A DNA stretch of 64,000 bases from an uncultured Lachnospiraceae bacterium (lineage in GTDB: Bacteria > Bacillota > Clostridia > Lachnospirales > Lachnospiraceae), in the NCBI GenBank assembly GCA_910577045.1, contig CAJTLB010000009.1, positions 19,561-83,560 of the forward strand, written 5' to 3'. Both the position numbers and the translations under genes were made by a program. Shown here piece after piece: positions 1,264 to 59,601 of this stretch (position 1 is the stretch's first letter; each line of letters begins with the position of its first letter). Below the pieces are notes generated by a model that made no database searches, was not told the origin of the DNA, and saw nothing but the letters and a program-made list of their open reading frames with translations.

Positions 1264-1429
1264 TTTTAACAATTAATAGCAAGGATTCCCTTTTCTCTTA
1301 GGTAGGGGAGGAATTGCTTAAAACAAGTGTAACGGCAGTAGTGGGCGGAGCGAAGGTGGTATCCCCTACTGCCATAAGGCAATCCACGTAATTGTCTTGC
1401 TCCTAACTACCACGAGGGAATTGAAACAA
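1264..1429 (+). repeat. Copy 1 of a dispersed structured non-coding element of about 165 nt (unknown family), directly 5' of the yjfB-like gene
   Basis: About 95% identical to the reverse complement of 13137-13305 and about 70% to the reverse complement of 43307-43464. Starts TTTTAACAATTAATAGCAAGG and ends CACGAGGGAATTGAAACAA. Contains the hairpin GGCAGTAGTGGG...CCCCTACTGCC. No ORF. Confidence 0.75.
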
Positions 1430-5332: not shown

Positions 5333-5761
5333 CTATTGTTCTATCAAGCATATCCTTCTCATATGCCTTTCATCATTTGAAAAAGGGGTATCTAAAAAAG
5401 TATCTACAATTTTTAAAGCTAATCCTGCCCCTACTACTCTTCCGCCAAGGCACAACACATTTGCATCATTATGCTGCCTTGTAGCCTCTGCACAAAAACA
5501 ATCTGTACATAATGCGGCGCGTATTCCTGGTACTTTATTCGCTGCTATAGAAATCCCTATCCCTGTCCCACAAATAAGGATGCCTTTTTCACAATTCCCT
5601 TCTGTTATTTCTTTTGTTACTAACTTTGCATAAACAGGATAATCACAAGAATCTTCATTATAACAGCCAAAATCCTGATATTCGATCCCTTTTTTCTCCA
5701 AATGCTTTATAACTTCTTGTTTTAAAGCATACCCGCCATGATCACTTCCTATTGCAATCAT
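5333..5761 (-). CDS. rpiB: Ribose-5-phosphate isomerase B
   Basis: 142 aa. MIAIGSDHGGYALKQEVIKHL...ILICGTGIGISIAANK...RQHNDANVLCLGGRV is the RpiB/LacAB signature. Confidence 0.9.
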   Translation of the reverse strand: MIAIGSDHGGYALKQEVIKHLEKKGIEYQDFGCYNEDSCDYPVYAKLVTKEITEGNCEKGILICGTGIGISIAANKVPGIRAALCTDCFCAEATRQHNDANVLCLGGRVVGAGLALKIVDTFLDTPFSNDERHMRRICLIEQ

Positions 5762-6227
5762 TTCTAACCTCCTTTTCTTCTTCTAAAAATAATTTTTCAG
5801 CAACTAGCTTTACCAATACACTAACCCGTTCAAAACACTCTGTATATACTTGCAAATCTCCGCCGGCTGGATCTTCTACATCGCCTTCCCCATCTAAAAA
5901 CTCATTGATAGTATATACATTAATAGCAGTTTCATATTGCTCATAAATACTTCTTTTTTGCTGCTCTGTCATAGTCAGCACTAACGTACGCTCATTTAGG
6001 TCCTCTTCCTGGAAAGGTATGGAACTTGGATGGACAAGAGGTATGCCAAACCCTTCCGCTGCCATTGCAGCCTTTGGGTTAATTGGTTCTGGGAATAACA
6101 CTACCATACCCCTTGAAGCTGTTGTAAGCTCCTTCCCTTTAATTAATTCCCGCATAACTCCTTCTGCCATAGGACCTTTACATGTGTCATCTGATGATAC
6201 AAAAATTACCCTATCATATTTTTCCAT
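5742..6227 (-). CDS. Low-molecular-weight phosphatase (YwlE-like) homologue with a degenerate CX5R(S/T) P-loop
   Basis: 161 aa in the conserved ywlC-ywlE-rpiB-upp context. The P-loop reads VIFVSSDDTCKGPMAEG where YwlE-type enzymes have FVCTGNTCRSPMAE. The acid motif DVEDPAGG is retained. Confidence 0.7.
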   Translation of the reverse strand: MEKYDRVIFVSSDDTCKGPMAEGVMRELIKGKELTTASRGMVVLFPEPINPKAAMAAEGFGIPLVHPSSIPFQEEDLNERTLVLTMTEQQKRSIYEQYETAINVYTINEFLDGEGDVEDPAGGDLQVYTECFERVSVLVKLVAEKLFLEEEKEVRNDCNRK

Positions 6228-6238
6228 TCAGTGTCTCC

Positions 6239-7291
6239 TTACAGCCTGATAATCTGATGCCCTGCCGCTTTTATCAGGCGGTTCATAATGGCCTGTCCCA
6301 GGTTTTCCTCCGAAAATGCTTCCGAAAAAATATACTCTGTTCCCATTTTATCAAATTCTCTAAGTACAGAAAATAAATGTTTTGCTATACTTGCTTCATC
6401 TTTCCTTGTCCCGATTACCCTTACACTATCCCCACAATAAAAACCTTTTGTTTCCTCTGTAGCAATAATGCCTATTTTATATCCTTGTTTCCTCTTTTCC
6501 TCTGCTAAATAATTAATTTTTGCAACAACCTGCGATAATTCCCCTTCTACAATAAAAAGCTCCGCCTTTGGCGCATAATGGCGGTATTTCATGCCAGGCG
6601 CTTTTGGTTTCACTGGTTCTTTCATATCCCCAGCAAGAAAAGGATCTACCTGTATCTTTCCAATGGCTTGTTCTAACATTGGCATAGTAATATAACCAGG
6701 CCGAAGCAGCATAGGTGGTTCCACGGTCATATCCATAATAGTAGATTCTATCCCAATCCCTACATTTCCCCCGTCAATAAGCATATCGATCTTACCATAT
6801 AAATCTTCTTTCACATGGGAAGCTTGTGTCGGGCTTGGTTTTCCTGAAGTATTGGCACTAGGGGCAGCAATCACTGTCCTACTCTCTTTTATTAATTTTT
6901 GCGCTACTGGATGTGACGGCATACGGACAGCCACTGTATCCAGGCCTCCTGTTGTTTCAAAGGGAACTTCCTTCTTTTTCCTAAAAATAAGCGTCAAAGG
7001 CCCCGGCCAAAACTCCTTCATTAGCTTTTTTGCCTTTTCATTCACCTCCTCTGCAACCCGTCCAAGTTCTTCAACCTCTGCGATATGAATAATTAAAGGA
7101 TTATCAGATGGCCTGCCTTTTGCCTGGTAGATTTGTGCTGCTGCTGCCTTATTCATGGCATCTGCCCCCAAGCCATAAACTGTCTCTGTAGGAAAAGCCA
7201 CAAGCCCTCCATTATGGATAATCTGTGCCGCCTGCTGATAGACTTCCTTATCCTCTGGAGAATTTGTTATCTTCTTTATAATTGTATCCAT
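6239..7291 (-). CDS. tsaC: L-threonylcarbamoyladenylate synthase (Sua5/YwlC type, with C-terminal Sua5 domain)
   Basis: 350 aa. GGLVAFPTETVYGLGADA...KGRPSDNPLIIH...VAVRMPSHPVA...IAAPSANTSGKPSPT are canonical YrdC/Sua5 motifs. Confidence 0.9.
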   Translation of the reverse strand: MDTIIKKITNSPEDKEVYQQAAQIIHNGGLVAFPTETVYGLGADAMNKAAAAQIYQAKGRPSDNPLIIHIAEVEELGRVAEEVNEKAKKLMKEFWPGPLTLIFRKKKEVPFETTGGLDTVAVRMPSHPVAQKLIKESRTVIAAPSANTSGKPSPTQASHVKEDLYGKIDMLIDGGNVGIGIESTIMDMTVEPPMLLRPGYITMPMLEQAIGKIQVDPFLAGDMKEPVKPKAPGMKYRHYAPKAELFIVEGELSQVVAKINYLAEEKRKQGYKIGIIATEETKGFYCGDSVRVIGTRKDEASIAKHLFSVLREFDKMGTEYIFSEAFSEENLGQAIMNRLIKAAGHQIIRL

Positions 7292-10297: not shown

Positions 10298-13036
10298 TTA
10301 ATTTACATATAACGTATTATTTTCTTCCCGTATATGGTAAAAAGCAGGATGTTCTTCTAACTTTTTATTCGGCGAATGTAAGGTCAAATATAACTTTCCA
10401 TCTAAACCAGTAAATAACATGCCGTGCCCTCCATCTTTTGAGAACAACAATCTGTTATCCTGAATCCATTTTCCTGTTATATCACCATTATCTGAATATG
10501 CCAAAGCTTCTGTATACCCTTCTGCACCAAAGCTAGACCATAAAAGGATTAACCTTCCAGATTTTGTACGGTACAAGAAAGGCCCATCTGTTACATAATT
10601 CTTACCTGGGCGGTTCGGGTTTTCATGTGCCACTACCCATTCTTCTGCTTCAGAAGCGGCAAATAATTGGAATGGCTCACCCACTGCATGGGTTAAATCC
10701 GCAGACAATTCTATTGCACAAATTGTCCCATCTTGGATCTGCACCCATTCATGCACAAATACCATATATGGCTTTCCTTCTGGGCTTACATAAAAAGTCC
10801 CATCTATACATTCCCAGTCCTTTGGGGTTATCTGGCGGATACTGTGTTCCACAAACGGCCCTAACGGGCTTTCTGCCTTTAAAATCTGTGTCCCGCCAAT
10901 AATCTCTTCTCCTTTAAATGTAGCGAACATATAAAATGCACCCTTATAAAAATGTACCTCTGGTGCCCAACAATTTTTATCTGCCCAAAAATCTTCTGGC
11001 TTATGGAATACCTCATAAGGCCCTTCCCAATCTTCTAAGTTAGTCCCTACATAACAGTCAAAGCCAGTTGCCTTGCCCCAGCAAGTTTCTGCCCTAGTCC
11101 CATACATATAATACTTTCCTTCATATACTAGCACAAATGGGTCCCGAATATTAATTTCATTATTTTTCAATTGTTTCACGCCCTTTTTTTCTTTTTGTAC
11201 TTTATGGAAAATATCCATAAACTCTTTTCCAGTAATAGTCTCTTTTTCAAATAAGAATTCTGCAATTCTATCTAAAATTTCTCTATTCTGGGAAAGCAGC
11301 TTCTTTGATTTATCAAAAGCTGTTTTTAATAATTTCATTACTTCCTGGTCAATTTCTGCCGCTGTCGCATCCCCACAATTTAAAACTGCATTTCCATCTA
11401 AATAACGGTTTTCTATATTTTCCAAACTCATTAAGCCAAATTTCTCTGACATGCCATATTGAGTAACCATTGCCCTTGCAATCTGGGTTGCTTTTTCGAT
11501 ATCATTTGAGGCACCCGTTGTCACTGTATCAAATACTAATTCCTCCGCTGCACGCCCAGCAAGCAAGGTAACAAGTCTTGCTTCCAATTCATCTTTTGTC
11601 ATCATATATTTTTCTTCTTCAGGCACCTGCATAACATAGCCAAGGGAGCCCATAGTCCTTGGCACAATGGTAATTTTTTGCACTGGTTCCGCGTCTTTTT
11701 GGAGTGCTGTCACTAAGGCATGGCCTACTTCATGATAAGCCACTGTCCGTTTTTCCTTTTCTCCAAGGATCCTATCTTTCTTCTCTTTCCCAGCAATAAC
11801 TACTTCCACAGATTCAAATAAATCTGCCTGGCTTACCACATTCCTTCCTTGTTTTACAGCTAAAATAGCAGCCTCGTTTATCATATTAGCAAGATCAGAA
11901 CCAACTGCCCCCGATGTCGCCAGCGCAATTTCCTCTAAATCCACGCTGTCATCCATTAATACATTTTTGGAATGGACTTTTAGTGTTTCCAACCTTCCTT
12001 TTAAATCTGGCTTATCTACAATAATCCGCCTATCAAAACGTCCTGGGCGCAACAATGCTTTATCCAGCACTTCTGGGCGGTTAGTTGCTGCCAAGATTAA
12101 AAGTCCTTTCGAGGTATCAAAACCATCCATTTCTGACAAAAGCTGGTTTAACGTCTGTTCTCTTTCATCATTTCCACCATACCTCGTATCACGGGTTTTT
12201 CCTATTGCATCGATTTCATCAATAAAAATAATACATGGTGCCATCTGTTGTGCCTGTTTAAATAAATCTCTTACACGGGACGCCCCTACACCTACAAACA
12301 TTTCTACAAAATCAGAACCTGCAAGGGAAAAAAATGGTACTTTTGCTTCACCTGCAACAGCCTTGGCAAGCAATGTCTTTCCAGTCCCAGGAGGCCCAAC
12401 AAGTAAGGCTCCTTTTGGGAGTTTTGCGCCAATCTTTACATATTTGCCCGGGTTATGCAGAAAATCCACAATTTCCGTTAAAGATTCTTTTGCCTCATCC
12501 TGCCCTGCCACATCTTTAAATGTAACACCTGTGGATTTCTCCACATATACCTTGGCAGTACTTTTCCCTACTCCCATCATGCCCCCGCCGCCCCGGGTCA
12601 TTCTTCTTACAAAAAACCCAAGCACTGCATACATTAAGACAATAGGCAATACCCAGATTAATAAAAAATCTAAAATAGCTGATCCAGAATCCTGAACAGG
12701 CACGTCAAACTGGACTCCATTCTTGGCACACGCCTCATAAAGAGTAGTCCTATCTACGCCAAAACCAGTATAATAAGTAAATTCTAGCATTGGGCTAACC
12801 TGTTTTTTTGGTACAATCACAATCCTATCTGACTCTACCCGTACTGCATCAATCTCTCCAGCTTCCATCTTACTTACAAATTCTGTATATGAAATGTACT
12901 TCGTTGTACTGCTCTTAATCCAGCTATTCATAAAGCTGACTAAGGTCAGCATAAGCAATCCAGAAATCACCAGAATAATAATAGTCTGGGTATTTTTCGG
13001 CAGCTTATTGCTGTTTTTGTTTTTATTTTCGTCCAT
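10298..13036 (-). CDS. ftsH: ATP-dependent zinc metalloprotease FtsH fused in frame to a C-terminal glycoside hydrolase family 43-like beta-propeller domain (912 aa)
   Basis: The first ~625 aa form a complete FtsH: two TM segments, Walker A GPPGTGKT, Walker B IIFIDEIDA, SRH ATNRPEVLDKALLRPGRFDR, and the zinc site HEVGHAL. The last 285 aa (nt ~10301-11155) begin INIRDPFVLVYEGKYYMYGT and continue WAPEVHFYKGAFYMF...ECIDGTF...VTDGPFLY...DGGHGMLF, which is GH43-like. There is no stop codon or ATG at the junction. Confidence 0.85.
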   Translation of the reverse strand: MDENKNKNSNKLPKNTQTIIILVISGLLMLTLVSFMNSWIKSSTTKYISYTEFVSKMEAGEIDAVRVESDRIVIVPKKQVSPMLEFTYYTGFGVDRTTLYEACAKNGVQFDVPVQDSGSAILDFLLIWVLPIVLMYAVLGFFVRRMTRGGGGMMGVGKSTAKVYVEKSTGVTFKDVAGQDEAKESLTEIVDFLHNPGKYVKIGAKLPKGALLVGPPGTGKTLLAKAVAGEAKVPFFSLAGSDFVEMFVGVGASRVRDLFKQAQQMAPCIIFIDEIDAIGKTRDTRYGGNDEREQTLNQLLSEMDGFDTSKGLLILAATNRPEVLDKALLRPGRFDRRIIVDKPDLKGRLETLKVHSKNVLMDDSVDLEEIALATSGAVGSDLANMINEAAILAVKQGRNVVSQADLFESVEVVIAGKEKKDRILGEKEKRTVAYHEVGHALVTALQKDAEPVQKITIVPRTMGSLGYVMQVPEEEKYMMTKDELEARLVTLLAGRAAEELVFDTVTTGASNDIEKATQIARAMVTQYGMSEKFGLMSLENIENRYLDGNAVLNCGDATAAEIDQEVMKLLKTAFDKSKKLLSQNREILDRIAEFLFEKETITGKEFMDIFHKVQKEKKGVKQLKNNEINIRDPFVLVYEGKYYMYGTRAETCWGKATGFDCYVGTNLEDWEGPYEVFHKPEDFWADKNCWAPEVHFYKGAFYMFATFKGEEIIGGTQILKAESPLGPFVEHSIRQITPKDWECIDGTFYVSPEGKPYMVFVHEWVQIQDGTICAIELSADLTHAVGEPFQLFAASEAEEWVVAHENPNRPGKNYVTDGPFLYRTKSGRLILLWSSFGAEGYTEALAYSDNGDITGKWIQDNRLLFSKDGGHGMLFTGLDGKLYLTLHSPNKKLEEHPAFYHIREENNTLYVN

Positions 13037-13136: not shown

Positions 13137-13305
13137 TGTTTCAATCCACTCGTGATAGTTAGGAGCAAGACAATTACGTGGATTGCCTCATGGCAGTAGG
13201 GGATACCACTTTCGCTCCGCCCACTACTGCCGTTACACTTGTTTTGAGCAATTCCTCCCCCCCCTACCTAAGAGAAAAGGGAATCCTTGCTATTAATTGT
13301 TAAAA
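13137..13305 (-). repeat. Copy 2 of the dispersed ~165-nt structured element, between the NADAR gene and ftsH
   Basis: The reverse complement is about 95% identical to 1264-1429. It ends ...GTCTTGCTCCTAACTATCACGAGTGGATTGAAACAA and carries a G8 tract where copy 1 has G4. Its first ~38 nt supply the last 12 codons and the stop of the NADAR ORF. Confidence 0.75.
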
Positions 13306-14164
13306 TTTCTTTATCGCATAAATTTTCATTTTGGCAAACTCTTTTTAGTTCATCTCTAACTTCCATTAATGCAAAGCCAAGTAAATTTTTTCCTCTCCAT
13401 TCCTTAGGGTTTTTTACATTTTCTTCTGACTCAGACATTTGGATTCCCCATATCCCATCATATGGGCTGGCTTCTACTAAAATACAATCCCCAGTAGAAA
13501 GCAAGAATTGCTTTAATACAGGATTTTGTGAAAATTTCATATAATTTCCATTTAAAACAACCGAATATTTTACCTTATCCCATATGCTTTCTTTAAAATT
13601 CTTTACTTTCCGCCCCAATGCTTTTATTTTTCTTGGGTCCTTACAATCTAAAATCTGTTGTAATACTTCTTTATCCTGAAATAGCTCTGCCTTTTTTGCC
13701 ATCATAAATTGTTCCATACAACCATAAGTATGGTTCGCAGACCAAAAATCCGCTTTCCACCATTGGCTAAGACAGCCTTTTGTAATACGCTTTTCTGAAG
13801 AAGCATGGGCTCCCCAAAACATTATAAAATCCATTTTCTTTCCCTTAGAATACTCTTTTTGTATTTGCACTAATGAATATTTCGGCTTACCGCCCTTTTG
13901 CCAGAAATCAATCCAAAAATCCCCTTTTTCATAATACTCATCTTCTTCCTCTTCTACATCTTCATCCCAATATCCTCGCCATGTAACTGGTTCAGGAAAT
14001 AATTTTTGATATTCTTCTGCCTCTTTCTCTGGAAGATTGTCATACCAATCTCCCCACTTTATTATATAAGATTCCCCATATCCCATGCGCCAGCCAATCG
14101 AATACCTTTCAATTTCAGGATAAGCAAGCCATGGTGGCGGCAACAACTTTTTCTCTTCCAGCAT
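13268..14164 (-). CDS. NADAR (YbiA/DUF1768) family protein with an N-terminal Trp-rich extension of about 110 aa
   Basis: 298 aa. The C-terminal ~170 aa (FWGAHA...LSQWW...GCMEQFMMAKKAELF...ALGRKV...WDKVKYSVVLNGNYMKFSQNP...LLSTGDCILVEASPYDGIWGI...GKNLLGFALMEVRDEL) match the NADAR signature. Confidence 0.8.
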   Translation of the reverse strand: MLEEKKLLPPPWLAYPEIERYSIGWRMGYGESYIIKWGDWYDNLPEKEAEEYQKLFPEPVTWRGYWDEDVEEEEDEYYEKGDFWIDFWQKGGKPKYSLVQIQKEYSKGKKMDFIMFWGAHASSEKRITKGCLSQWWKADFWSANHTYGCMEQFMMAKKAELFQDKEVLQQILDCKDPRKIKALGRKVKNFKESIWDKVKYSVVLNGNYMKFSQNPVLKQFLLSTGDCILVEASPYDGIWGIQMSESEENVKNPKEWRGKNLLGFALMEVRDELKRVCQNENLCDKEILTINSKDSLFS

Positions 14165-33189: not shown

Positions 33190-36100
33190 TCAATTGGTAA
33201 GCATAAATTGTTTAGCTTCATTCTGCATAATCTCTCCTGTCTTTCGGCCATACTTCACTCCTCGTTCTACAGCAGCAAGCAATAACGCACTGCTTCGTGC
33301 ATATCCCATAGTCCGAATAGTTGCCTTTAACAAGCTATCTTTATCCATAGCCCCTTGTTCTTTCAAAGTAATGCAAACAGCATTTTTCAATTCCTGATAA
33401 CAAATTTCATCCATGATTCTCTTTTCTTCAGAATTTATATCGTTCCGATAAATCTTATATATCTCTGGCTCCTGATCTTTACGCCAATAAAACTTAACTC
33501 CCGCCTGTTTATTCACTTTTGCAGATACCTTCTTTAATGCCTTATCTGTTGCTTCCAATGTTTGTGAACTCGATCTAGTAATATTAAAAGCCCTTAATGT
33601 TTTTTTTATCAGGCGGTCATACATAATTGGTGCTTCTACATCTATAATCTGTTGCATCTTATTCGCAATAACCGCTAGATTTTCTTTTTTTACATAGTCT
33701 GTTGTAGATATATTTGTTACTTCAATATCTGCTGGCACATAATTTTCTATATGATAGTCTAAGTAAACGGAATCTATTTGAGTAACAGCTTCTAAAGCCT
33801 CTTTATCCCCTGAAGCCACCTTTTGATCTACAGCTTTAACAATAGTACTATCTATCACAAAGTATTCCTCTGTTCCCATTTTAAATTCTGGTTTATATTC
33901 CAATTCTGGATTATCCAAATGTCTTTCTATATAGATCTGGTATGCTGCCTCCTTCCTTTCGTTTAAAAGCTGCATAAGCTTAAAAATCTCCTTATCTCGG
34001 TTATCCCACCAATCCATTGTCCAGATACGATGCAATTCCCAGCCAAGGCCATTCAGCACACTAATTTGTGCCACTTCCCGATCCTTAGTATTTAATGATT
34101 GATAGTAAGATTCCCCATCTAACATAATACCAAGTAAATATTCCTCCTCATTATAAGGATTAATTACCGCAATATCAACTTTAAACTTAGAATGGCCCAC
34201 CGCTTTCTGGTATTTATATCCACCATCACTAATTGCTTGGCAAATATGTTCCATAATTCCCTGATCTCTCTGGACTCTAGTTTCCACATATTCACCTTGA
34301 AGTTTTCCCTTTTGCGCAAATTCCAAAAAATTCCTCAAAGATTCTACACCCTTGGCTTTCGTTCTCTTCAAATCAATCATATCTGCTATCATAGTAGTAA
34401 ATACTATCATTTCATTTCTTGCACGGGACACTGCTACATTCAGCCTTTTCCAGCCGCCATTTTTATTTAATGGTCCAAAATTCAACAACAGTTTTCCTTC
34501 TTCATCTGGTCCGAAAGCAATAGAAAATAAAATTACATCCCGTTCATCACCTTGTACATTCTCAAGATTCTTTACAAACATAGGTTCTTCACCAGCATTT
34601 GCCCATTTATCAAAAACTATATCTTTCTGATATTCTTCTTGAAGCATATCCTCAATCAATGTTTGTTGGCTAATATTAAATGTAACCACACCAATTGTTT
34701 GATTTGTTAGCTCTGGATCCTGATACCGCCTTTTAATTTCAGCGACAATTGCTTTTGCTTCTCCCTCATTTATACGGCCTCTTCCTCGATCAAAAAAACC
34801 TTCTACCTTCACTAACCTTACCTTCTTTTCACGGTCATTTACTGAGGGGAATGTCAACATAGAATTCTCATAAAATTCCTGGTTACTGAATGCAATAAGG
34901 CTTTCATGCCTGCTTCGGTAATGCCAATGCAGATATGCAGATGGCATTCCAAGTGCCAGACAGTCATCCAAAATACTATCTAAATCTTCAATATCCAAAT
35001 TATCTTCATCTACGGTATTGCCAGCAAAAAAACTAGTTGGCGGCATCTGATTGGGATCACCTACAATAACAGCATTTTTACCTCTTGCCAACACGCCAAC
35101 TGCCTTACAAGTAGGCAGCTGTGAAGCCTCATCAAAAACCACAATATCAAACAAATTATTTTCTGCTTTCAGATACTGTGCCGCTGAAATTGGGCTCATC
35201 AGCATACATGGACATAACCTCATAAGAATATGGGGAATCTGCTCAAACAATGTCCTAATAGACAAACCTCTTCCATTACTAATTGCCCTGCGCAAAATAT
35301 TTAGTTCTTTGCTGACTTCTACAGAATCATATGATGTTGGCAACTGATGTGTCAATTTGTAAAACATCTCATCTTTTGTCAGATTCATAAATTCCTGATC
35401 CAATTTCTTAAACTGTGCAATCTTTTCATTAAATCCAATACCAGTAAATGCGTTGAGTACTGGTTCATTTTCAATTACAGACAAAATAATTGTTTGATAT
35501 ATTGACCTCAAATATACTGTCATTACCTCATCATGGGGAAGTCCTGCTTCATAGGCATCACAGATTTGCTCAAGTCCTTTTTGCCTACATTCTGCTACAA
35601 ATTGCTGGTAAACAATCCAATCCTTGATAGATGATGTATTTTCCAAAATACAAGAACAAAGTGTAAGCCTGTTGTCTATCCAGTCTCCATCTACGTGCTC
35701 AAACGCAAGATCCAATAACCTTGCCACTTCCGCTTCTACCTTCTTTACATCGTCCAGCCCAGTAATTACATCTTTTGCCTTTTGTATACACAATTTAAGG
35801 CTTCCCAAAGTTTCCAGATTATGGATTTGATCAGAAAACTGTGCTATTATTTGTATCTGTCTTTTCACCTTATCCTTATATGTACGCAACGCTTCCATTA
35901 CTGGATAGCATTTAAGGATTTCTTTCCATTCATAGGAAAGCGAAGCTTCTGCCTCTGCTATTTCCTGTGCTTCCTGCTGATAAAAACTAATATCTGTCAA
36001 ATACGCTAAAATACGGTTTGGTTCTACTTGAAATAAAGCAAATGCCTGCAACTCTGATGTTAATGTTGCTAATGCTTTTCCCTTGCCAAAAAATTTCTTA

Positions 36101-39100
36101 TTTGCCAGATCATACTTATCCTTATAAGAATTCATATCCATTCGCAGGAAATTTTCGTTCCAATTTGACAAAAATTCTGTTTTCTTTACATCAAAGGCTT
36201 GTTTTTTAGATAAATAAGTTTCTGGTGCAGCAAATTCCTGTTCTATATTCTTTGAATTAAGCAAAAATACTGGTATTTCTTCTGCTATAATTACACTATA
36301 AGCATAATTACATATATTTTTCCACTCCTCTTCTGTTACTGGCTTTTGTACTCCCATCAATCCTACAAAATCCAATACACTATTCTGGAACTTTTCTAAC
36401 GAATCCATATATGCACGAATAATAGTATCCAAATCAAACTTCACACGTTGACTATATTCTGTCTTATGTACTGCCCTAAGAGGGTGATTATAAGGATGCC
36501 CTATTCCCTTGCCTGCTGCAATTAACCGTTCTAAACTATGTACCTGATGATCCAGATCACTTTCTGTAAGTGATGCCGCATAAGCATGATCAAACCGGAC
36601 ATTTTTATTTAATTCAGGAATCATCTCATAAATATCCATCAATTGACGCAAGCTCTTTCCAAAGGGCCGTTTTACATGCAGAGCTTTTACATAAGCATCC
36701 AGCTCTGCCCTCATCTTTTGAATATCTTGAATTTTCTTATCATAATCTGTTTTCATTCCCCATACGCCAATTTCTAGCCCACGTTTCAACTGATCCAATA
36801 CAGCCTTTTTCGTTGCCTTATTAGAATGTAGTTCCAAGCAAAAATCCTGGATACCAAGCGCAGCCAGCCTTTTTTGCACTACCTCAAGTGCAGCCATTTT
36901 TTCTGCCACAAAAAGGACTGTTTTTCCCTTAGTAAGTGCATTTGCTATCATAGCTGTAATTGTCTGTGATTTTCCTGTTCCTGGCGGCCCATGCAATACA
37001 AAACTTACTCCTGCTGCTGCCATATTAATGGCCCGCAGCTGAGAAGAGTCCACTGTTACTGGTAAGTAGGCTTCATCTGTATTGACGCTTTCTGGAATCA
37101 CACAATCCCAATCCAATGCACCAATCATTAAGCTGTGGACAATTTTACTATTTTCAAGAAAAGTATTGTTATTATGTATATCATTCCACATCATAAATTG
37201 AGAAAAAGAAAAGTTTCCGATAAATCCAGCTTCTACTACATCCCACATAGGAAGGTTCATAATTGCATGGCGAATAATAGCAAAAATCTTTGGGATATTT
37301 AATCCATGTTCGTCTGTTGGTGGAGGATTCAATCCATAAATTTGTATATCATAATTCTGCTTTAAGAATTCCAAAAGGGTAATATTAATCTGTGCATCCT
37401 CATCACGCATACGCATAGCATATCCTTTATTGGCAGATTTCCGCACAATATCAATAGGAACCAATACAATGGGAGCATACCTTATTGTAGTACTTTTCTT
37501 TTCTTCAAACCAGCGCAGCAGCCCTAATGCCAAATATAAAGTACTAGCCCCATTCTCTTCCATAGAGGATTTCGCAGAACGGTACATTTTTGTTAAACAA
37601 TTATTTAATTCTTTTTCTGCATACAGAGAATGAAGCCTCTTATGTTTGCTCTCCAGTGCAATAAAATCTGCAAAAGGCCCTAACTGTCCTAGTGCTTCTA
37701 CTGGAACTCCACCATCTCCGGCAATAGACATATCTGTTGGCCGCGGCATTACCTGGAACTCTTCACCATCAGACAATGCATCTTCCAAAACACTGACATC
37801 AGAAGCCAGCAATGGAACTACCATTTTTGTCATACGCATATTAATTAACATATTCCGAAGGCTAAGATCCAACAACTTACGCTCCCACTGCGTTAATTTT
37901 GTTACTTTATCCTTCTGTGTAGAATTAGGAAGATCAAAAATCTCTACTTTATTTTGTGATACATTGGTAACTTCTTTCTCTTTTCGGTCTTCATGTTGTA
38001 CTTCAAACCCACTTGCTGTTTTTACACGAACTGGAAGAGGCTTTATTCCCATGCTTCTAGCACGTTTCACATCAATTACAAATATAAAATCTCCATAATG
38101 TGATACATTTGCTTTCGCTATAGCAACTGCCTCGTCAAAACTTCTGCTCTTCCCAGCACACATTGCCGTACATTCTACAACAATCATTTCATGAATACCC
38201 TTAGACATACGCTTTTCCAGCTGAGAAGGATCTTCCATAATCATGTCTATAAAAGATTCTTCTACTAGCCAAACACCAGCAAAAATATGGCCCTTCATCA
38301 TCACCATAACAGGATTCAATCCCATCGCTTCTATACATGCTACATACAACAATGTCATATCCATACAAGTACCAAGATGCTGATCCAATATAGCATCTGC
38401 CAAACGGATCCTTTGCCCAAACGCTTCAAAACTCGAAGGCGGTTCTGCATAAGTAATATTTTTCTGCTGAATTGCTGCATAGGCTGCTGTAGCCATATCT
38501 TTAACCCGGTTTGGATCTTTGAATTGATATCCTGCCAGTGACGGATCCCCAGTCCATTTTTCCAAATATTTTGCTGCTAATTGAATCATACTTATTACTA
38601 CTGGATGATTTGGCATAGAAAATGCTGTTAAAAGTTCTGGCGTATACTGTAACCCCGGCCACTGATCGTATGCCAATACTATAATATTTATAGTCTTTTT
38701 TATTAACTGATTTTCTTCAAAACAAATAATAATACTTATTTGGCAAGAACTTCTTTCTGTAAGAGATGCCAGATATTCCGCATTAATAGAAACATCTAAA
38801 TTTTTAAGATGAACTTCCTCGCCTGGCTTAATTTTATCAATGCCTATGTCAAAATTTTCTACAAGCTGATTACTGGAACAGATCCGAACTGTTAGATATT
38901 GAAAATCTTCTTCAGAAATATTTTTTACACATATATCCCGAACAATATGTACACCATTATGAATAATCGCATAAGTAAGTACATCATCAATATCGCAAGT
39001 AAGCTCCAAACCATTCTTTGTTGCATCAATGGTACTCTGTTTTGTTTTTTCTGTGCTATTACGCTCAGCTAATAATTCCTTTTCCTGATTATCTATCTCT

Positions 39101-39456
39101 ATGGCTTGTACTATCTGCATAGAATCAGCTTTCTTTTCTTCTTGAATTTCTTCTACACCTGTTATTTCAGCTTCTTTTGGCATATCTTCTTCAATATTTT
39201 TTATACAATTTTCCCAAGCCAACATGACTGCAGCCATATGCTTACAATTATTACCTACTTTAGCATATGGGCAACTACAATCCATAGACAAAATAGAATC
39301 TCTACTTACTTGTATATCTACATTAAAATCTTCTATCCCAATAACCTTTGCTGTAACCCTATCTTCCTTTATTAAGAGCTCCTGAACCGAATCACTCTGG
39401 ATATAGCCTTGTGCCCCATTTAATACATCTTCTTTAAAAAGTTCCCTCCATTCCAC
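33190..39456 (-). CDS. 2088-aa multidomain protein: SWIM zinc finger, transglutaminase-like Cys-protease fold, DUF4011, Upf1/DNA2-like SF1 helicase (AAA_11/AAA_12), Vsr-like PD-(D/E)xK endonuclease, DUF3320
   Basis: GTG start 7 nt after SD AAGGGGG.
- SWIM CxC...CxH: C60, C62, C71, H73 (nt ~39217-39294).
- TGase-like LGTC364MDMTLLYVACIEAMGL...GH390IFAGVW (nt ~38152-38439).
- DUF4011-like LLDLSLRNMLINM (from aa ~525).
- Walker A GPPGTGK829S (nt ~36970-36993) and Walker B VVFDEASQ (nt ~35131), separated by about 600 aa of mostly helical insert.
- Helicase motifs VGDPNQMPP, HYRSRHESLIAF, VQGDERDVILFS, LNVAVSRAR.
- Nuclease-like GYKYQKAVGHSKFKVDIAV...LGIMLDGESYY...HRIW (nt ~34000-34240).
- DUF3320-like C-terminus (nt ~33230-33670). 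Confidence 0.85.
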   Translation of the reverse strand: MEWRELFKEDVLNGAQGYIQSDSVQELLIKEDRVTAKVIGIEDFNVDIQVSRDSILSMDCSCPYAKVGNNCKHMAAVMLAWENCIKNIEEDMPKEAEITGVEEIQEEKKADSMQIVQAIEIDNQEKELLAERNSTEKTKQSTIDATKNGLELTCDIDDVLTYAIIHNGVHIVRDICVKNISEEDFQYLTVRICSSNQLVENFDIGIDKIKPGEEVHLKNLDVSINAEYLASLTERSSCQISIIICFEENQLIKKTINIIVLAYDQWPGLQYTPELLTAFSMPNHPVVISMIQLAAKYLEKWTGDPSLAGYQFKDPNRVKDMATAAYAAIQQKNITYAEPPSSFEAFGQRIRLADAILDQHLGTCMDMTLLYVACIEAMGLNPVMVMMKGHIFAGVWLVEESFIDMIMEDPSQLEKRMSKGIHEMIVVECTAMCAGKSRSFDEAVAIAKANVSHYGDFIFVIDVKRARSMGIKPLPVRVKTASGFEVQHEDRKEKEVTNVSQNKVEIFDLPNSTQKDKVTKLTQWERKLLDLSLRNMLINMRMTKMVVPLLASDVSVLEDALSDGEEFQVMPRPTDMSIAGDGGVPVEALGQLGPFADFIALESKHKRLHSLYAEKELNNCLTKMYRSAKSSMEENGASTLYLALGLLRWFEEKKSTTIRYAPIVLVPIDIVRKSANKGYAMRMRDEDAQINITLLEFLKQNYDIQIYGLNPPPTDEHGLNIPKIFAIIRHAIMNLPMWDVVEAGFIGNFSFSQFMMWNDIHNNNTFLENSKIVHSLMIGALDWDCVIPESVNTDEAYLPVTVDSSQLRAINMAAAGVSFVLHGPPGTGKSQTITAMIANALTKGKTVLFVAEKMAALEVVQKRLAALGIQDFCLELHSNKATKKAVLDQLKRGLEIGVWGMKTDYDKKIQDIQKMRAELDAYVKALHVKRPFGKSLRQLMDIYEMIPELNKNVRFDHAYAASLTESDLDHQVHSLERLIAAGKGIGHPYNHPLRAVHKTEYSQRVKFDLDTIIRAYMDSLEKFQNSVLDFVGLMGVQKPVTEEEWKNICNYAYSVIIAEEIPVFLLNSKNIEQEFAAPETYLSKKQAFDVKKTEFLSNWNENFLRMDMNSYKDKYDLANKKFFGKGKALATLTSELQAFALFQVEPNRILAYLTDISFYQQEAQEIAEAEASLSYEWKEILKCYPVMEALRTYKDKVKRQIQIIAQFSDQIHNLETLGSLKLCIQKAKDVITGLDDVKKVEAEVARLLDLAFEHVDGDWIDNRLTLCSCILENTSSIKDWIVYQQFVAECRQKGLEQICDAYEAGLPHDEVMTVYLRSIYQTIILSVIENEPVLNAFTGIGFNEKIAQFKKLDQEFMNLTKDEMFYKLTHQLPTSYDSVEVSKELNILRRAISNGRGLSIRTLFEQIPHILMRLCPCMLMSPISAAQYLKAENNLFDIVVFDEASQLPTCKAVGVLARGKNAVIVGDPNQMPPTSFFAGNTVDEDNLDIEDLDSILDDCLALGMPSAYLHWHYRSRHESLIAFSNQEFYENSMLTFPSVNDREKKVRLVKVEGFFDRGRGRINEGEAKAIVAEIKRRYQDPELTNQTIGVVTFNISQQTLIEDMLQEEYQKDIVFDKWANAGEEPMFVKNLENVQGDERDVILFSIAFGPDEEGKLLLNFGPLNKNGGWKRLNVAVSRARNEMIVFTTMIADMIDLKRTKAKGVESLRNFLEFAQKGKLQGEYVETRVQRDQGIMEHICQAISDGGYKYQKAVGHSKFKVDIAVINPYNEEEYLLGIMLDGESYYQSLNTKDREVAQISVLNGLGWELHRIWTMDWWDNRDKEIFKLMQLLNERKEAAYQIYIERHLDNPELEYKPEFKMGTEEYFVIDSTIVKAVDQKVASGDKEALEAVTQIDSVYLDYHIENYVPADIEVTNISTTDYVKKENLAVIANKMQQIIDVEAPIMYDRLIKKTLRAFNITRSSSQTLEATDKALKKVSAKVNKQAGVKFYWRKDQEPEIYKIYRNDINSEEKRIMDEICYQELKNAVCITLKEQGAMDKDSLLKATIRTMGYARSSALLLAAVERGVKYGRKTGEIMQNEAKQFMLTN

Positions 39457-40986: not shown

Positions 40987-41294
40987 ACCTCTGCTTCATG
41001 GTTCCAAGACAATATAACACTTGAATTTTCTTCTTTTAAGACTTTTAAATTTATTTATAAACTAATAAAATTATTTTCTTATATTATATTTTCAGATATA
41101 ATATCAATATAATGCACACTCTATCATATATTAATTACTCTTCTATTCTCTAAAGATTTTTCTTACTTTTTTGTAAATGTGCTATAATAGAAATATCAAC
41201 ATAAAAATTGAGTTCTTATAAAATAATGAAACATTATAAATTTTAAATATAAGATATATAACCACATACAATAATGAAGAAAGGAAGTGAATCC

Positions 41295-41852
41295 ATGTTA
41301 GCATTACAGCCAGAAACTATTAACCTAACACAGTATGAAGCTCTTCCAGAAGATATAAGGATAGAAGTCTTTGATGGAGTAATTTATAATATGGCCAGCC
41401 CATCACAAATTCACCAATCAATACTTTTAGAGCTTAGTACATTGCTCAATACTTATATCAAAAGAAAAAGAGGAGATTGTAAGGTTTTTCTCGCTCCATT
41501 TGATGTATTACTTTCTGACAATCCCCTTACAATCGTGCAACCTGATATTATGATTGTCTGTGATAAAAACAAGTTAGATGAAAAACGTTGCAATGGTGCC
41601 CCTGACTTTATTATTGAAATTGTTTCTCCCAGCAATCCATCAGATGACTATATCCGCAAACTCTACTACTACAAAAATACTGGCATTCGTGAATATTGGA
41701 TTATAGATCTACGCCGCAAAACAGTAACTATCAACTATTTTGAGAAAAATTTGCTGAACATCCAATATTCCTTTGAATCCACAATCAAAGTTAATATTTA
41801 TGACGATTTATATATTAATTTTTCTGATATTGCTAATTTATTGAATATTTAA
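41295..41852 (+). CDS. Uma2-family (DUF820) PD-(D/E)xK endonuclease
   Basis: YEALPEDIRIEVFDGVIYNMASPSQIHQ...QPDIMIVC...GAPDFIIEIVSPSN...KLYYYKNTGIREYWIID is the canonical Uma2 pattern. The start is trimmed to the ATG after SD GAAAGGAAG. Confidence 0.85.
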   Translation: MLALQPETINLTQYEALPEDIRIEVFDGVIYNMASPSQIHQSILLELSTLLNTYIKRKRGDCKVFLAPFDVLLSDNPLTIVQPDIMIVCDKNKLDEKRCNGAPDFIIEIVSPSNPSDDYIRKLYYYKNTGIREYWIIDLRRKTVTINYFEKNLLNIQYSFESTIKVNIYDDLYINFSDIANLLNI

Positions 41853-41937: not shown

Positions 41938-43293
41938 TTATTTCCTAATTATTTGGCACACCACCTCCACCGCCACCGTCTGAGGAAACATGTCCACTGG
42001 CTGTACTATTTCTGTTTTATACCCCATCTCTTCCAATATGCCCAAATCCCTTGCCAATGTTGCAGAATCGCAAGAGACATATACAATCCGTTCTGGCTGC
42101 ATCTTTACCATTGTATGAAGAAGTATTTCATCGCATCCTTTCCTTGGCGGGTCTACTACAATGACATCCACATGTTCTTTTGTAGTTTCATACCATGCTG
42201 GGACTACTTCTTCTGCTTTGCCTACAAAGAATTCCACATTTTCTATTCCATTCCTCTTTGCATTTTGTTTTGCATTTTCTATTGCTTCTGCTACAATTTC
42301 CACTCCATACACTTTTTTTGCTTTTTTCGCTAAAAAAAGAGAGATTGTGCCAATGCCGCAGTACATATCCCATACCACTTCTTTTCCAGAAAGCCCAGCA
42401 AATTCTAATGCCTTCTGGTATAATTTTTCTGTCTGTATTGGATTTACCTGGTAAAAAGACAAAGGCGAAATTTCAAATACTATTTCGCCAATCCTATCCT
42501 TAATTGCCCACTCTCCCCAAAGTTTCTTAATTTCCTTCCCCAGAATTACATTTGTCTTTTCTTTATTAATACTATACATAATACTTTTCATTCCCGGAAT
42601 AACAGCAAGCCTTTCTGCCAATACCTCACCATATGGAAGCTTTACACCATTAATTATTATACATACCATAATTTCCCCTGTATGGTATCCCTTTCTTATT
42701 AACACATGACGGATTAAACCAGTATATGTTTTTTCGTTATATGGCTCTAAGCTATATTCCATCATAAAATTTTTTATTATTGTAAGGATCTCTTGATTTT
42801 CTTCTACCCCTATTAAACACTCCTTACATGCTATAATAGAATGTGTCCTTCCTGCATAAAACCCAGTAATTAAATTTCCTTCTTTATCTTTTCCTACTGG
42901 GAATTGGGCCTTATTGCGGTAATGCCAAGGATCTTCCATAGCAATTATAGGCCTATATTCACAATCTTTCACTTTCCCAATACGTCCTAAATTATTCTTT
43001 ACCTTATTTTCTTTAAAAATAAGCTGCTCTTTATAAGAATAAGCCTGGAGCTGGCATCCGCCACACTGGCTTGCTATTTGGCAGCGTGGCTGTACCCTTT
43101 TTTCTGAGGGTATAACTAGCTCTACCAACTTCCCATAGCCATAATTCTTCTTTGCTTTTATTATTTTTACCTTGGCAATATCCCCAATTACAGTATCTTT
43201 AATAAAGAGGGTATAGCCGTCAACCTTCCCTATACCCTCTCCATCTTGATTTATATCTGTAATTGCCACTGTTACTATATCATTTTTATTCAT
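41938..43293 (-). CDS. rlmD: 23S rRNA (uracil-5-)-methyltransferase RlmD/RumA family
   Basis: 451 aa with an N-terminal TRAM domain, an Fe-S Cys cluster (C...CGGCQLQ), the SAM motif DMYCGIGTISL, DPPRKG and the catalytic YVSCD. Confidence 0.9.
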   Translation of the reverse strand: MNKNDIVTVAITDINQDGEGIGKVDGYTLFIKDTVIGDIAKVKIIKAKKNYGYGKLVELVIPSEKRVQPRCQIASQCGGCQLQAYSYKEQLIFKENKVKNNLGRIGKVKDCEYRPIIAMEDPWHYRNKAQFPVGKDKEGNLITGFYAGRTHSIIACKECLIGVEENQEILTIIKNFMMEYSLEPYNEKTYTGLIRHVLIRKGYHTGEIMVCIIINGVKLPYGEVLAERLAVIPGMKSIMYSINKEKTNVILGKEIKKLWGEWAIKDRIGEIVFEISPLSFYQVNPIQTEKLYQKALEFAGLSGKEVVWDMYCGIGTISLFLAKKAKKVYGVEIVAEAIENAKQNAKRNGIENVEFFVGKAEEVVPAWYETTKEHVDVIVVDPPRKGCDEILLHTMVKMQPERIVYVSCDSATLARDLGILEEMGYKTEIVQPVDMFPQTVAVEVVCQIIRK

Positions 43294-43306
43294 ATTTTTT
43301 CACCTA

Positions 43307-43464
43307 TTTCAATCCACTCGCGGCAGTTAGGACAATTATATGGACTGCCTTACGGCAGCAAAAGATACCGCTTTTGCTCTGCCCGCTGCTACTGTTATGG
43401 TTGTTTTTGGCAATTCCTTCCCCTCCCTAAGAGGAAAAGGAATCCTCACTGTTAATTATTACAG
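43307..43464 (-). repeat. Copy 3 (divergent) of the dispersed structured element; fills the yhaM-rlmD spacer
   Basis: The reverse complement aligns end to end with copies 1 and 2 at about 70% identity, with a 7-nt deletion. It ends ...GTCCTAACTGCCGCGAGTGGATTGAAAT, about 13 nt before the rlmD ATG, and starts 3 nt after the yhaM stop. Confidence 0.65.
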
Positions 43465-43467
43465 TTG

Positions 43468-44421
43468 TTATTTTAAATAATCAGATGTTTTGCGCAAATT
43501 GGAATCTGCAAAGCGGTTAAACCCAAGCCAGCCTTCATTTCCATCTGCGTTTTCTAGGATTTCTTTCATCATTTCCAATTTATCATCTGCCACATCTGCA
43601 AAATTTAATGCCATTGCTTCTACCAATGCCGGCTTTTTTGGGGAACCAAATTCCAACTCACCATGATGTGCTAAAATACAATGTTTTAATTCACTTGCCA
43701 TTTTAGGCGGAAAGCCTTCTATCTTTCTAATTCGCTCCCCAACCAATTCACATCCTATGGCAATATGGCCTAAAAGCTGCCCATCATCTGTATAGTCATT
43801 TTCTGGGAATGGGGATATTTCCCAGATTTTCCCTATATCATGGAACATAGCGGCAGGTATTAATAAATCATACTGTAAAATCTTATAATGTTCTGTAAAA
43901 AAATTACAGATTCTAGTAACCCCTAGGGTATGTTCTAATAATCCCCCAATAAACCCATGATGTACTGTTTTTGCTGCGGAATGTTTTTTAAACTTGCTAA
44001 TAAATTCCTTATCCTCTACAAAAAAACTATCCACTAATTTTTTCATATAAGGGTTTTTAATTTTTGATACATATTTCATTAACTCTTGGTACATTTCTTC
44101 AATATCCCTGCTGCTTACTGGAAGATAATCCGCTGGATTACATTCTTCCTGGGAAACTCTTCGAATACGCTTAATATTTAACTGTTTTGCACCATTAAAT
44201 ATAGTTACTTCACCTACCACACTTACATAATCCATTGCATCAAATTCATCAATGCCCATCGAATTTGGCTCCCAAACTTTTGCATCTAAAGTACCTGTTT
44301 TATCCTGCAAAATTACATTGTCATAGGCTTTCCCATTTTTTGTCACTGCTGACTGTTTATATTTGCATAAATAAATATCTTGTACCCGTTCCCCTTCACT
44401 CATATCCTTAATATATCTCAT
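43468..44421 (-). CDS. yhaM: 3'-5' exoribonuclease YhaM (OB-fold + HD domain)
   Basis: 317 aa with an N-terminal OB fold (VILQDKTGTLDAKVWE) and HD motifs (LLEHTLGV, MFHDIGK, ILAHHG). Confidence 0.85.
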   Translation of the reverse strand: MRYIKDMSEGERVQDIYLCKYKQSAVTKNGKAYDNVILQDKTGTLDAKVWEPNSMGIDEFDAMDYVSVVGEVTIFNGAKQLNIKRIRRVSQEECNPADYLPVSSRDIEEMYQELMKYVSKIKNPYMKKLVDSFFVEDKEFISKFKKHSAAKTVHHGFIGGLLEHTLGVTRICNFFTEHYKILQYDLLIPAAMFHDIGKIWEISPFPENDYTDDGQLLGHIAIGCELVGERIRKIEGFPPKMASELKHCILAHHGELEFGSPKKPALVEAMALNFADVADDKLEMMKEILENADGNEGWLGFNRFADSNLRKTSDYLK

Positions 44422-55436: not shown

Positions 55437-55533
55437 ACTCTGCCTCCATACTTTCCTTACTATCTTAATTAAAACTTGGCATCTCATCAATTTTCCTTAA
55501 GAGTTGACGCCACAACCAATTTCAGTTATACTT

Positions 55534-59515: not shown

Positions 59516-59601
59516 GCCGGCGTGGCGGAACTGGCAGACGCACAGGACTTAAAATCCTGCGGGATTAATCTCCCGTACCGGTTCGATTCCGGTCGCCGGC
59601 A
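59516..59601 (+). tRNA. tRNA-Leu (anticodon UAA), class II with a long variable arm; CCA not encoded
   Basis: Acceptor stem GCCGGCG/CGCCGGC plus discriminator A. Anticodon stem-loop CAGGA-CTTAAAA-TCCTG. Variable arm CGGGATTAATCTCCCG. T-arm ACCGG-TTCGATT-CCGGT. Confidence 0.95.

Follow-up and report, generated by a model that had tools for sequence, protein, structure and literature searches.

We analysed a 64,000-nt stretch of DNA from an uncultured Lachnospiraceae bacterium of the mouse gut (GenBank assembly GCA_910577045.1, contig CAJTLB010000009.1, positions 19,561 to 83,560), an organism known only from metagenome-assembled genomes (MAGs); the window, below, means this whole stretch. It carries three dispersed copies (w1, w2 and w3) of a structured element whose 3′ terminus matches or resembles the last nucleotides of type I-C CRISPR repeats, from which the 5′ handle of the CRISPR RNA (crRNA) derives. 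The family to which these copies belong is very probably linked to type I-C systems. On balance, we are inclined to regard the window copies as promoter-less solo copies of a handle-terminated leader RNA module of type I-C (a 'repeat-0'), spread in the manner of a miniature inverted-repeat transposable element (MITE). The mechanism by which such an RNA would tag transcripts with a handle is proposed with moderate confidence, and a role of the three chromosomal copies for their host with low confidence. The module consists, from 5′ to 3′, of a TTYAAYAAYTAA motif, an optional promoter insert of about 85 nt that is absent in the window, hairpin 1, the conserved hairpin 2, the variable long hairpin 3 and a handle of 11-12 nt.

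A type I-C handle that follows the local repeat

A sequence-only reading of the window had taken the end of the element to be the conserved 3′ end of type I-C repeats, and this became the key lead. This identification was correct with respect to the type I-C repeats of Roseburia hominis, a member of the Lachnospiraceae (GTCGCTCCCTGTGAGGGGAGCGTGGATTGAAAT, PMC4645204), and B. halodurans (GTCGCACTCTTCATGGGTGCGTGGATTGAAAT, PMC6519985): type I-C repeats, including this one from the Lachnospiraceae, end 3′ in GTGGATTGAAA(C/T). The sequence (G)UGGAUUGAAA(C/U), the source of the 11-nt crRNA 5′ handle, closes w2 and w3, and w1 deviates from it; the end of w1 had been read as CGAGTGGATTGAAAC, and is in fact CGAGGGAATTGAAAC. 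Homology of the last 34 nt of the element to a complete type I-C repeat was also considered and was rejected, only the terminal 12 nt being robust.

We built a covariance model of the element (R1) and scored it over the window, Lachnospiraceae MAGs and metagenome contigs; further loci are designated by L numbers. A scan of viral contigs with the core of hairpin 2 returned 16 stretches, all but one of them new; the 15 new stretches all match R1 (32 hits in total) and constitute a second subfamily, M, beside the subfamily W of the window. The M contigs are related mosaic mobile genetic elements (MGEs) of gut metagenomes with several copies per locus, 29 of the 32 R1 hits lying in gene orientation. 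M copies, including those of L046 and L064, end in GGCTGGGGATTAAAAC, so that their terminal 12 nt are GGGGATTAAAAC, which differs from the canonical terminus GTGGATTGAAAC carried by W at two positions. Genuine arrays are present on L046 and on its relative L064 (an 803-kb contig), with the repeat ATCGTACCCTTCGTGGGTACGGGGATTAAA[AG][CT] and spacers of 33-37 nt, and the M element and the CRISPR repeat of these contigs end in the same 12 nt. The sequence-only reading had called for a comparison of repeat ends within the genome; a match was obtained on these MGE relatives. Since W ends canonically and M ends like the local repeat, the terminus co-varies with the cognate repeat.

The position of the M copies points in the same direction. 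On L064, and likewise on L046, the order is cas7, array A, an element followed by 18 nt, array B, a further element, a 30-nt spacer-like sequence, one full repeat, cas5d and csd1 fragments. In front of cas5d-cas8c there is therefore a one-spacer unit (L064 12360-12596), made of the element handle, the 30-nt spacer-like sequence and one repeat. The cas7 gene encodes a type I-C Cas7/Csd2 (Pfam E=4e-75; 299.8 bits with NCBIfam TIGR02589, whose cut-off is 182), whose closest homologues (74-98% identity) form an MGE clade. Clusters of cas7-cas5d-csd1 also lie beside topoisomerase, single-stranded DNA-binding protein and C5 methylase genes on L062 and L063, where no cas3, cas1, cas2 or cas4 was found in the 14 kb seen, and a degenerate element copy stands between cas7 and cas5d in the MGE clusters of this kind. 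Judging from this arrangement, the element appears to act as a 'repeat-0', from which the first spacer of an array, and likewise the one-spacer unit before the cas genes, receives its handle. The gene order cas7-cas5d-csd1 is itself unusual (L062 5422-9104, L063 5397-9135 and L064 10001-16028, with no cas3 or adaptation genes in the DNA seen). On L064, a Cas9 gene begins at 17505, about 1.5 kb downstream of the type I-C effector genes.

The window copies and the gut MGE copies are homologous from end to end: in alignment A8, W and M are aligned over their full length except for a promoter-like insert of about 85 nt in M. M units accordingly begin about 85 nt further upstream than R1 suggested, with the same terminal motif as the window copies, followed by the insert (...TGATATATAT...) and then by the W-homologous sequence. 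A shorter type of copy, as in L047, has only hairpin 2, hairpin 3 and the handle, and begins right after the stop codon of an open reading frame (ORF). The MGE copies also precede many protein-coding operons. Downstream of them, four contexts were seen: a Shine-Dalgarno sequence and an ATG, the ATG lying 16-45 nt past the element end; a spacer-length insert of 26-38 nt and then a terminator hairpin; 9 nt and then a terminator; or a CRISPR array. No copy with the canonical handle was found beside an array in the viral contigs, L061 being a chance match.

Copies, predicted structure and insertion sites

The sequence-only reading had described three homologous copies, and all three were recovered (Table 1). 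The identity is 94-96% between w1 and w2, and 74-78% between w3 and either of them; w3 is an older copy than w1 and w2, and lacks 6 nt (CTTGCT), where a 7-nt deletion had been described. A search of the whole window with the covariance model, with filters off, found no further copy. There was also no Rfam match at gathering thresholds in the whole window, and at E<=10 copy 1 gave only a chance match to FMN (13.9 bits against a threshold of 66.2 bits), in agreement with the previous failure to recognise an Rfam family. The statement that the window has no array, cas gene or transposase likewise holds among its annotated ORFs, which are ordinary housekeeping genes (a 2088-aa ORF and several small ORFs were not scanned). 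No consistent promoter, terminator or anti-Shine-Dalgarno sequence was found within the element.

Table 1. Positions in the window of the three element copies, their parts and the adjoining genes
Feature	Position	Strand	Remarks
Copy w1	1264-1427	+	W subfamily, promoter-less; covariance model 197.8 bits
w1 5′ motif	1264-1279	+	TTTTAACAATTAATAG
w1 hairpin 1	1278-1318	+	
w1 hairpin 2	1334-1373	+	
w1 hairpin 3	1380-1423	+	
w1 handle-like 3′ terminus	1416-1427	+	GGGAATTGAAAC; two positions mutated relative to the family consensus GTGGATTGAAAC
yjfB-like ATG	1441	+	13 nt from GAAAC; Shine-Dalgarno AAGGAGG directly after the w1 terminus
Copy w2	13138-13305	-	Covariance model 196.9 bits
w2 3′ terminus	13138-13149	-	GTGGATTGAAAC, as at the 3′ end of type I-C repeats, from which the crRNA 5′ handle derives
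NADAR ORF, upstream of w2	13268-14164	-	Runs 37 nt into w2; its stop is an internal TAG
ftsH ATG	13036	-	99 nt downstream of w2, behind the promoter-like site of ftsH itself
Copy w3	43306-43464	-	Covariance model 159.6 bits; more diverged
w3 3′ terminus	43306-43317	-	GTGGATTGAAAT; the R. hominis and B. halodurans type I-C repeats have the same last 12 nt
HD-domain gene	43468-44421	-	Its stop codon precedes w3
rlmD	41938-43293	-	w3 ends before its Shine-Dalgarno sequence, 12 nt from the ATG

We then examined the predicted structure. RNAalifold and single-sequence folds agreed on three hairpins, and over 16 distinct copies 95.4% of the cells held standard pairs, compared to at most 52.5% in slid controls. 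The covariation check that had been proposed for the element revealed compensatory changes: 7 pairs were changed on both sides, versus 1.9 ± 1.2 in shuffles (1 of 500), a count that leans towards structure, since the model had guided the alignment. L037 has a fully rewritten inner stem in hairpin 1, with UCUCACC/GGUGAGA in place of UUCCCU/GGGGAG. No part of the family is more conserved than hairpin 2 (CAGUAG-GGGCGGAG.GAAA..GGUAUCCCC-CUACUG), and the conserved G-U pairs indicate a structure of this strand only, as RNA or as single-stranded DNA. The folds also support the pairings that had been proposed from the window copies, i.e., AATCCAC with GTGGATT, a pairing that the w3 variant AGTCCAT keeps through two G-U pairs, and the hairpin GGCAGTAG-GGG/CCC-CTACTGCC. 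An 'anti-handle' covariation between the subfamilies, taken from the model-fitted alignment, was not relied on, as independent folds pair the handle differently in W and M.

Across the window, the Lachnospiraceae MAGs and the metagenome contigs, R1 gave 23 hits, many of them at contig ends, as would be expected if a multicopy repeat breaks assemblies, and the copies have at least 12 distinct flanks. An exact scan for the 5′ pattern, with one genome per species, identified three uncultured Lachnospiraceae MAGs (L008, L010 with two copies, and L011) along with four chance hits, the species of the window not being among the genomes returned, and R1 matches 14 of the 19 stretches returned by a metagenome scan, most of which come from the assemblies ERZ808040 and ERZ808051, which also hold contigs 97-98% identical to the window. 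A search of the plasmid database (blastn, distant mode) gave no match, and that of the phage database one divergent copy; further copies are held by phage-labelled records, namely L013, where the copy lies in the early region of a contig resembling a temperate phage, and the divergent L037. Among the strains seen, w1, w2 and w3 showed no presence/absence polymorphism, all three being found in all strains. Two copies are internally deleted with their termini kept: L011 6159-6286 (-) has lost hairpin 3 by a deletion between two ACTGCC direct repeats, and L010 2967-3090 (-) most of hairpins 1 and 2.

The site of w3 could be compared to an empty one. The MutS2-HtrA-HD-RlmD synteny is kept in two sister species, with RlmD orthologues 74-76% identical, and HD-rlmD sites are empty in L043, L044 and L045. 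The distance from the HD stop codon to the rlmD start is 29 and 18 nt in the two sister species and 174 nt in the window, which implies that w3 was inserted between a stop codon and the next Shine-Dalgarno sequence; where L045 reads TAA-GCAGTT-AGGTGAAAGGCTATG, the window reads TAA-CAA-[w3]-AGGTGAAAAAATATG. From this comparison of sequences, w3 is evidently an insertion. No target-site duplication was found in 16 junctions or in the comparison of filled and empty sites, no clear terminal inverted repeat exists beyond an imperfect terminal complementarity of 4-7 nt (GTTTxA.../...TxAAAC), and neither the window nor about 400 kb of related loci showed an autonomous partner with a transposase sharing these ends.

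The element had been described as always lying 5′ of a gene start, and the distances to the yjfB-like, rlmD and ftsH starts were as given. This is, however, half of the pattern: a co-oriented gene lies downstream of about 11 of 13 copies, the next co-oriented start often being 10-30 nt past the 3′ end, and the tighter regularity is that the 5′ end of the element adjoins or overlaps the stop codon of an upstream gene in the same orientation. Such an upstream ORF is present at 13 of the 16 evaluable loci and, in 12 of these 13, ends between -37 and +21 nt from the element 5′ end; five upstream ORFs extend into the element and stop inside it. The orientation bias that was to be checked was thus found, as every copy shares the sense of an adjacent gene and none is antisense to both neighbours. 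From the GC skew, the minus strand is the leading strand throughout the window, and w1 nonetheless lies on the plus strand with yjfB; L024, L031 and L010b also run with the adjacent gene where the local skew points the other way. This links orientation to transcription instead of replication, and replication strand was rejected as its cause. In one MAG (L033 2686-2733), a w2-like copy starts within the T-run of a chemoreceptor gene's intrinsic terminator (ccccgTTTTTTAACAATT...).

The genes that flank the copies have little in common. The w1 copy occupies the divergent spacer between a yitT-like gene (-) and the yjfB-like gene (+); over all copies, the flanking genes are NADAR/FtsH, HD/RlmD, YitT/YjfB, OppA/OppB, Asp23/NusB, SEC-C/RtcB, ThrC, PARG, Schlafen, PyrI/AraA, Mrr/integrase and a chemoreceptor, and those downstream include yjfB, ftsH, rlmD, nusB, oppB, rtcB and integrases. 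As the neighbouring genes are unrelated, a common regulon is ruled out, and with it the shared cis-regulatory leader that had been put forward as one alternative. Upstream flanks are swapped at the element, with the same downstream flank, between L023 and the window and between L033 and L034, which could be due to recombination between copies or to chimeric MAG joins. Tyrosine integrase genes lie 19 and 299 nt downstream of two chromosomal copies and are co-oriented with them (L024 2357-3625 (-) and L031 1540-2661 (+)), that of L024 standing by itself, close up against a convergent RumA-like gene; integration may make use of the element, or the proximity may be coincidental.

Several other features of this region were recorded. 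A small hairpin precedes w1 at 1237-1253. The FtsH ORF (10298-13036, -) encodes 912 aa, which is far above the length expected of a bacterial FtsH, and Pfam lists Glyco_hydro_43 after Peptidase_M41, possibly an unusual C-terminal fusion. A Uma2-family endonuclease gene (41274-41852) adjoins rlmD. The largest gene of the window is the 2088-aa ORF (33190-39456, -). Five tandem 42-nt (14-aa) repeats at 53727-53990 (-), 65-91% identical to the reference copy, lie inside the ORF 53667-55490, at the C-terminal end of a VanW/G5/PG_binding_4 protein gene. A tRNA gene with a long variable arm (59516-59601, +; Rfam tRNA, 57.9 bits) has the anticodon loop CUUAAAA, read by eye, which suggests tRNA-Leu(UAA). 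A HicA/HicB toxin-antitoxin pair at L001 13790-14464 belongs to a strain variant; the window sequence differs there, the strains diverging beyond about position 40300 of the window.

Proposed mechanism and competing explanations

In type I-C systems, the cut made by Cas5d falls at the 3′ base of the repeat hairpin, and the 11-nt handle stays on the crRNA. Cas5 is the processing enzyme of this subtype (PMC10651486). We propose that the element acts as RNA, in which hairpin 3, ending at or just before the handle, would together with it mimic the hairpin-plus-handle substrate of the Cas5d endoribonuclease. Transcripts of the element would be cut, or merely bound, at the handle (predicted cut position G|UGGAUUGAAAC), and the downstream RNA would become handle-tagged and crRNA-like, so that Cas5, Cas8c and Cas7 could load it. 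Before arrays, this would make the first spacer usable. At solo copies, it may titrate Cas proteins in the manner of an RNA anti-CRISPR (Racr), lead to Cas-dependent processing, or mask the downstream 5′ untranslated region or place it under the control of Cas proteins. Lacking the promoter insert, the window copies would need read-through from the upstream gene, which fits their placement right at upstream stop codons, and their spread within this Lachnospiraceae chromosome would have been MITE-like. The solitary-repeat or crRNA-mimic form of the guide-RNA scaffold proposed in the sequence-only reading comes closest to what the MGE relatives show, with their repeat-like last 12 nt and their place as first 'repeat' beside cas7, cas5d and cas8c.

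Several observations weigh against this interpretation. Beyond the last 12 nt, the likeness to the R. hominis and B. halodurans repeats is weak (GTC..GCTCC only), the palindrome that precedes the handle in type I-C repeats is absent (some copies have, by eye, at most a CTTGC/GCGAG stem of 5 bp), and none of the CRISPR-DR models of Rfam matched at E<=10. Individual young copies have mutated handles (GGGAATT.. in w1, GTAGATT.. in L023 and GTAGACT.. in L011), which is what the neutral decay of a selfish repeat would give. The folds also differ, as W pairs the 5′ half of the handle with AAUCCAC and M pairs its 3′ half with the 5′ end of the element; hence, the access of Cas5d to the handle is not evident. 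No array or cas gene was seen beside any copy of the W subfamily, no targets were found in the DNA examined for the array spacers or for the spacer-like sequences after elements, hairpins 1 and 2 are given no role, and no transposase, clear terminal inverted repeat or target-site duplication accounts for mobility. A further-reaching version of the mechanism, which we consider rather unlikely, starts from the MGEs that encode Cas7-Cas5d-Cas8c and place the module before arrays, cas genes and many accessory operons, with no cas3 in the DNA seen: Cas5d would cut every module transcript at the handle and Cascade subunits would coat the ~35 nt that follow, including the ribosome-binding site and start codon, so that Cas proteins would control a set of operons post-transcriptionally; the promoter-less form, having escaped into a Lachnospiraceae chromosome and spread there as a MITE does, would wire housekeeping genes such as ftsH, rlmD and yjfB to this control.

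The mobility of the copies could also be that of a plain selfish MITE acting at the DNA level, whose hairpins and termini would be sites for a transposase or recombinase, whose 12-mer would have been picked up beside an array without any RNA function, and whose sense bias would result from selection against antisense insertions. Near-identical copies at which assemblies break, the empty site, the swapped upstream flanks, the short terminal complementarity and the mutated handles of young copies all suit such an element. The near-identical copies, the assembly breaks and the empty site also bear out the behaviour that the sequence-only reading had in mind with its MITE-like alternative, while the ends of a MITE (target-site duplication, convincing terminal inverted repeat) and a transposase are lacking. 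A selfish MITE does not account for a terminal 12-mer that tracks the variant of the co-resident repeat in a second subfamily and takes, in register, the place of the first repeat both in an array and in a one-spacer unit next to cas genes. The conserved G-U pairs and the strand-specific covariation argue for a single-strand structure, and the copies keep the orientation of the adjacent gene even where the local strand bias opposes it; we think this explanation improbable. Another role for the MGE copies would be that of a Racr-like decoy, a solitary-repeat mimic that sequesters type I-C Cas5, Cas8c or Cas7 and protects the MGE, the chromosomal copies being parasitic spill-over. Type I-C immunity is inhibited by RacrIC1, a solitary-repeat RNA of this subtype that is transcribed together with an acr gene (PMC10651486); the MGE copies are numerous, their regions holding methyltransferases, an ImmA/IrrE-type M78 peptidase and small ORFs, and several have a terminator 9 nt past the handle, the architecture of a spacer-less small RNA. 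However, the same MGEs carry arrays with the same handle as well as cas7, cas5d and cas8c, which a decoy would poison, only 12 of 32 nt of the repeat are matched, compared to the coverage of at least 90% in the full-match criterion of SRUFinder, and the window copies sit between chromosomal housekeeping genes; a decoy is a distinctly unlikely explanation.

The layout of gene, element, gene, element in one orientation, with mosaic relationships that break at the elements of the MGE loci, would also be expected of an attC-like or att-like site at which a tyrosine or serine recombinase shuffles cassettes, or of a generic MGE promoter-leader (e.g., an antitermination RNA) whose handle seeds arrays. 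The two nearby tyrosine integrase genes, a start motif that resembles RYYYAAC and the promoter-like insert of M can be read in this way. Against this, no GTTRRRY partner or integron-type integrase was found, the window flanks are conserved housekeeping genes in fixed synteny, and a terminus identical to the crRNA handle of the local repeat is left unexplained, which makes it a very unlikely solution. Integron attC sites as such were rejected: some copies begin in agreement with RYYYAAC, but the element ends 3′ in ATTGAAAC or ATTAAAAC, no IntI-type gene was found and the housekeeping flanks are syntenic. We give the least credence, hardly any, to a palindrome-associated transposable element (PATE) of the IS200/IS605 type, with an omega-RNA-like scaffold whose 3′ flank would guide a TnpB- or IscB-type nuclease acting in trans. 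Subterminal hairpins, strand-specific insertion without target-site duplication and a geometry of scaffold followed by flank recall such elements, and one MGE locus that carries elements, L046, has a complete IscB-like gene (RRXRR and HNH, 415 aa) amid element-bearing operons, the gene and its RNA together spanning 5619-7170 (-). That IscB, however, has its own HEARO omega-RNA (L046 6921-7170, Rfam 113.7 bits), unrelated to the element, on which the HEARO and IS605-orfB families give no match. Nor is there a conserved 4-5 nt target 5′ of the element, the upstream flanks having no consensus; no TnpA or TnpB was found in the window or the loci examined, and orientation follows genes instead of the replication strand. 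The comparison with TnpB/IscB loci that had been suggested thus turned out negatively, and the omega-RNA form of the scaffold alternative was discarded.

Relation to known systems and significance

Repeat-derived RNAs outside arrays (trans-activating crRNA, CreA/crlRNA, Racr and Cracr) are an emerging regulatory and counter-defence layer of CRISPR-Cas. To our knowledge, the described class 1 examples are all essentially whole repeats or mini-arrays. The solitary repeat units of the Racr type (RacrIC1, PMC10651486) resemble the element in being repeat-derived sequences outside arrays, on phages or other MGEs, co-transcribed with their neighbours, and of the same cognate subtype, I-C. In contrast, a Racr corresponds to about one whole repeat, matched over its full length including the hairpin (SRUFinder asks for a coverage of at least 90% of a known CRISPR repeat; PMC10651486), whereas the element matches only the last 11-12 nt (about 12 of 32-33 nt), and its handle is fused to a conserved three-hairpin domain of 150-260 nt. 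Its family, moreover, stands at the head of genuine arrays on MGEs encoding Cas7, Cas5d and Cas8c and is multicopy in a bacterial chromosome; the window copies lie among syntenic housekeeping genes and not on a virus, prophage or plasmid, and relatives occur on IMG/VR and phage-labelled contigs. The crRNA-like mini-arrays (CreA, crlRNA and viral Cracr; PMC10120712, bioRxiv 10.1101/2024.10.29.618823) likewise place a repeat-like element beside cas genes and make a single crRNA-like RNA, to which the one-spacer unit of L064 can be compared. They have two repeat-like sequences and a spacer that partly matches a promoter, whereas the element replaces the first repeat by a large structured leader, no target was found for its unit, and most copies, including those of the window, lack a second repeat. 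In the window there are three dispersed single copies instead of a tandem array, and real arrays were found only in the MGE relatives L046 and L064.

Outside CRISPR-Cas, MITE-like structured intergenic repeats of Firmicutes and other bacteria include bcr1 of the Bacillus cereus group, ERIC and Correia/NEMIS. Like the element, they are non-coding, 100-200 nt long, multicopy and intergenic, are co-transcribed with their flanks and have a stable predicted RNA structure. The element is short, non-coding and multicopy with filled and empty sites, as a MITE would be, but differs from these repeats in having no target-site duplication or clear terminal inverted repeat, a promoter-bearing form on MGEs and a 3′ end that is a CRISPR handle tracking the local repeat. 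With TnpB/IscB omega-RNAs and IS200/IS605 PATEs it shares a structured scaffold whose boundary is the element end, a flank as possible guide and the lack of target-site duplications, but it has no partner nuclease gene, transposon-associated motif or Rfam match, and its terminal motif is of class 1 (Cascade). CRISPR leader RNAs, such as the type II-A leader RNA, whose pairing partner is the first repeat, and boxA antitermination leaders, are also transcribed structured sequences directly upstream of the first repeat; the leader formed by the element differs in ending in a handle that substitutes for a repeat, and in being reused before non-CRISPR genes and as dispersed solo copies. We therefore file the family as a CRISPR-repeat-derived, non-array kind, which falls outside the full-length-repeat and two-repeat definitions and has the behaviour of a MITE without the ends of one.

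In summary, this is a dispersed genomic repeat tied to CRISPR-Cas proteins, a link of which we found no earlier description. What is new with regard to described systems is that the handle alone is kept, fused to a structured domain with or without a promoter, and that it heads arrays and cas genes on MGEs and also occurs as a chromosomal repeat. If it proved to be selfish DNA and no more, a structured repeat not catalogued before would still have been found in gut Lachnospiraceae, one that breaks metagenome assemblies and promotes rearrangements or causes chimeric MAG joins. If the RNA function holds true, it would represent a new route to crRNA-like or Cas-bound RNAs from ordinary mRNAs, would give a function to the type I-C cas7-cas5d-cas8c clusters of MGEs, in which no cas3 was found in the DNA examined, and would offer a compact natural part, a hairpin and a handle, for Cas5d-based RNA processing.

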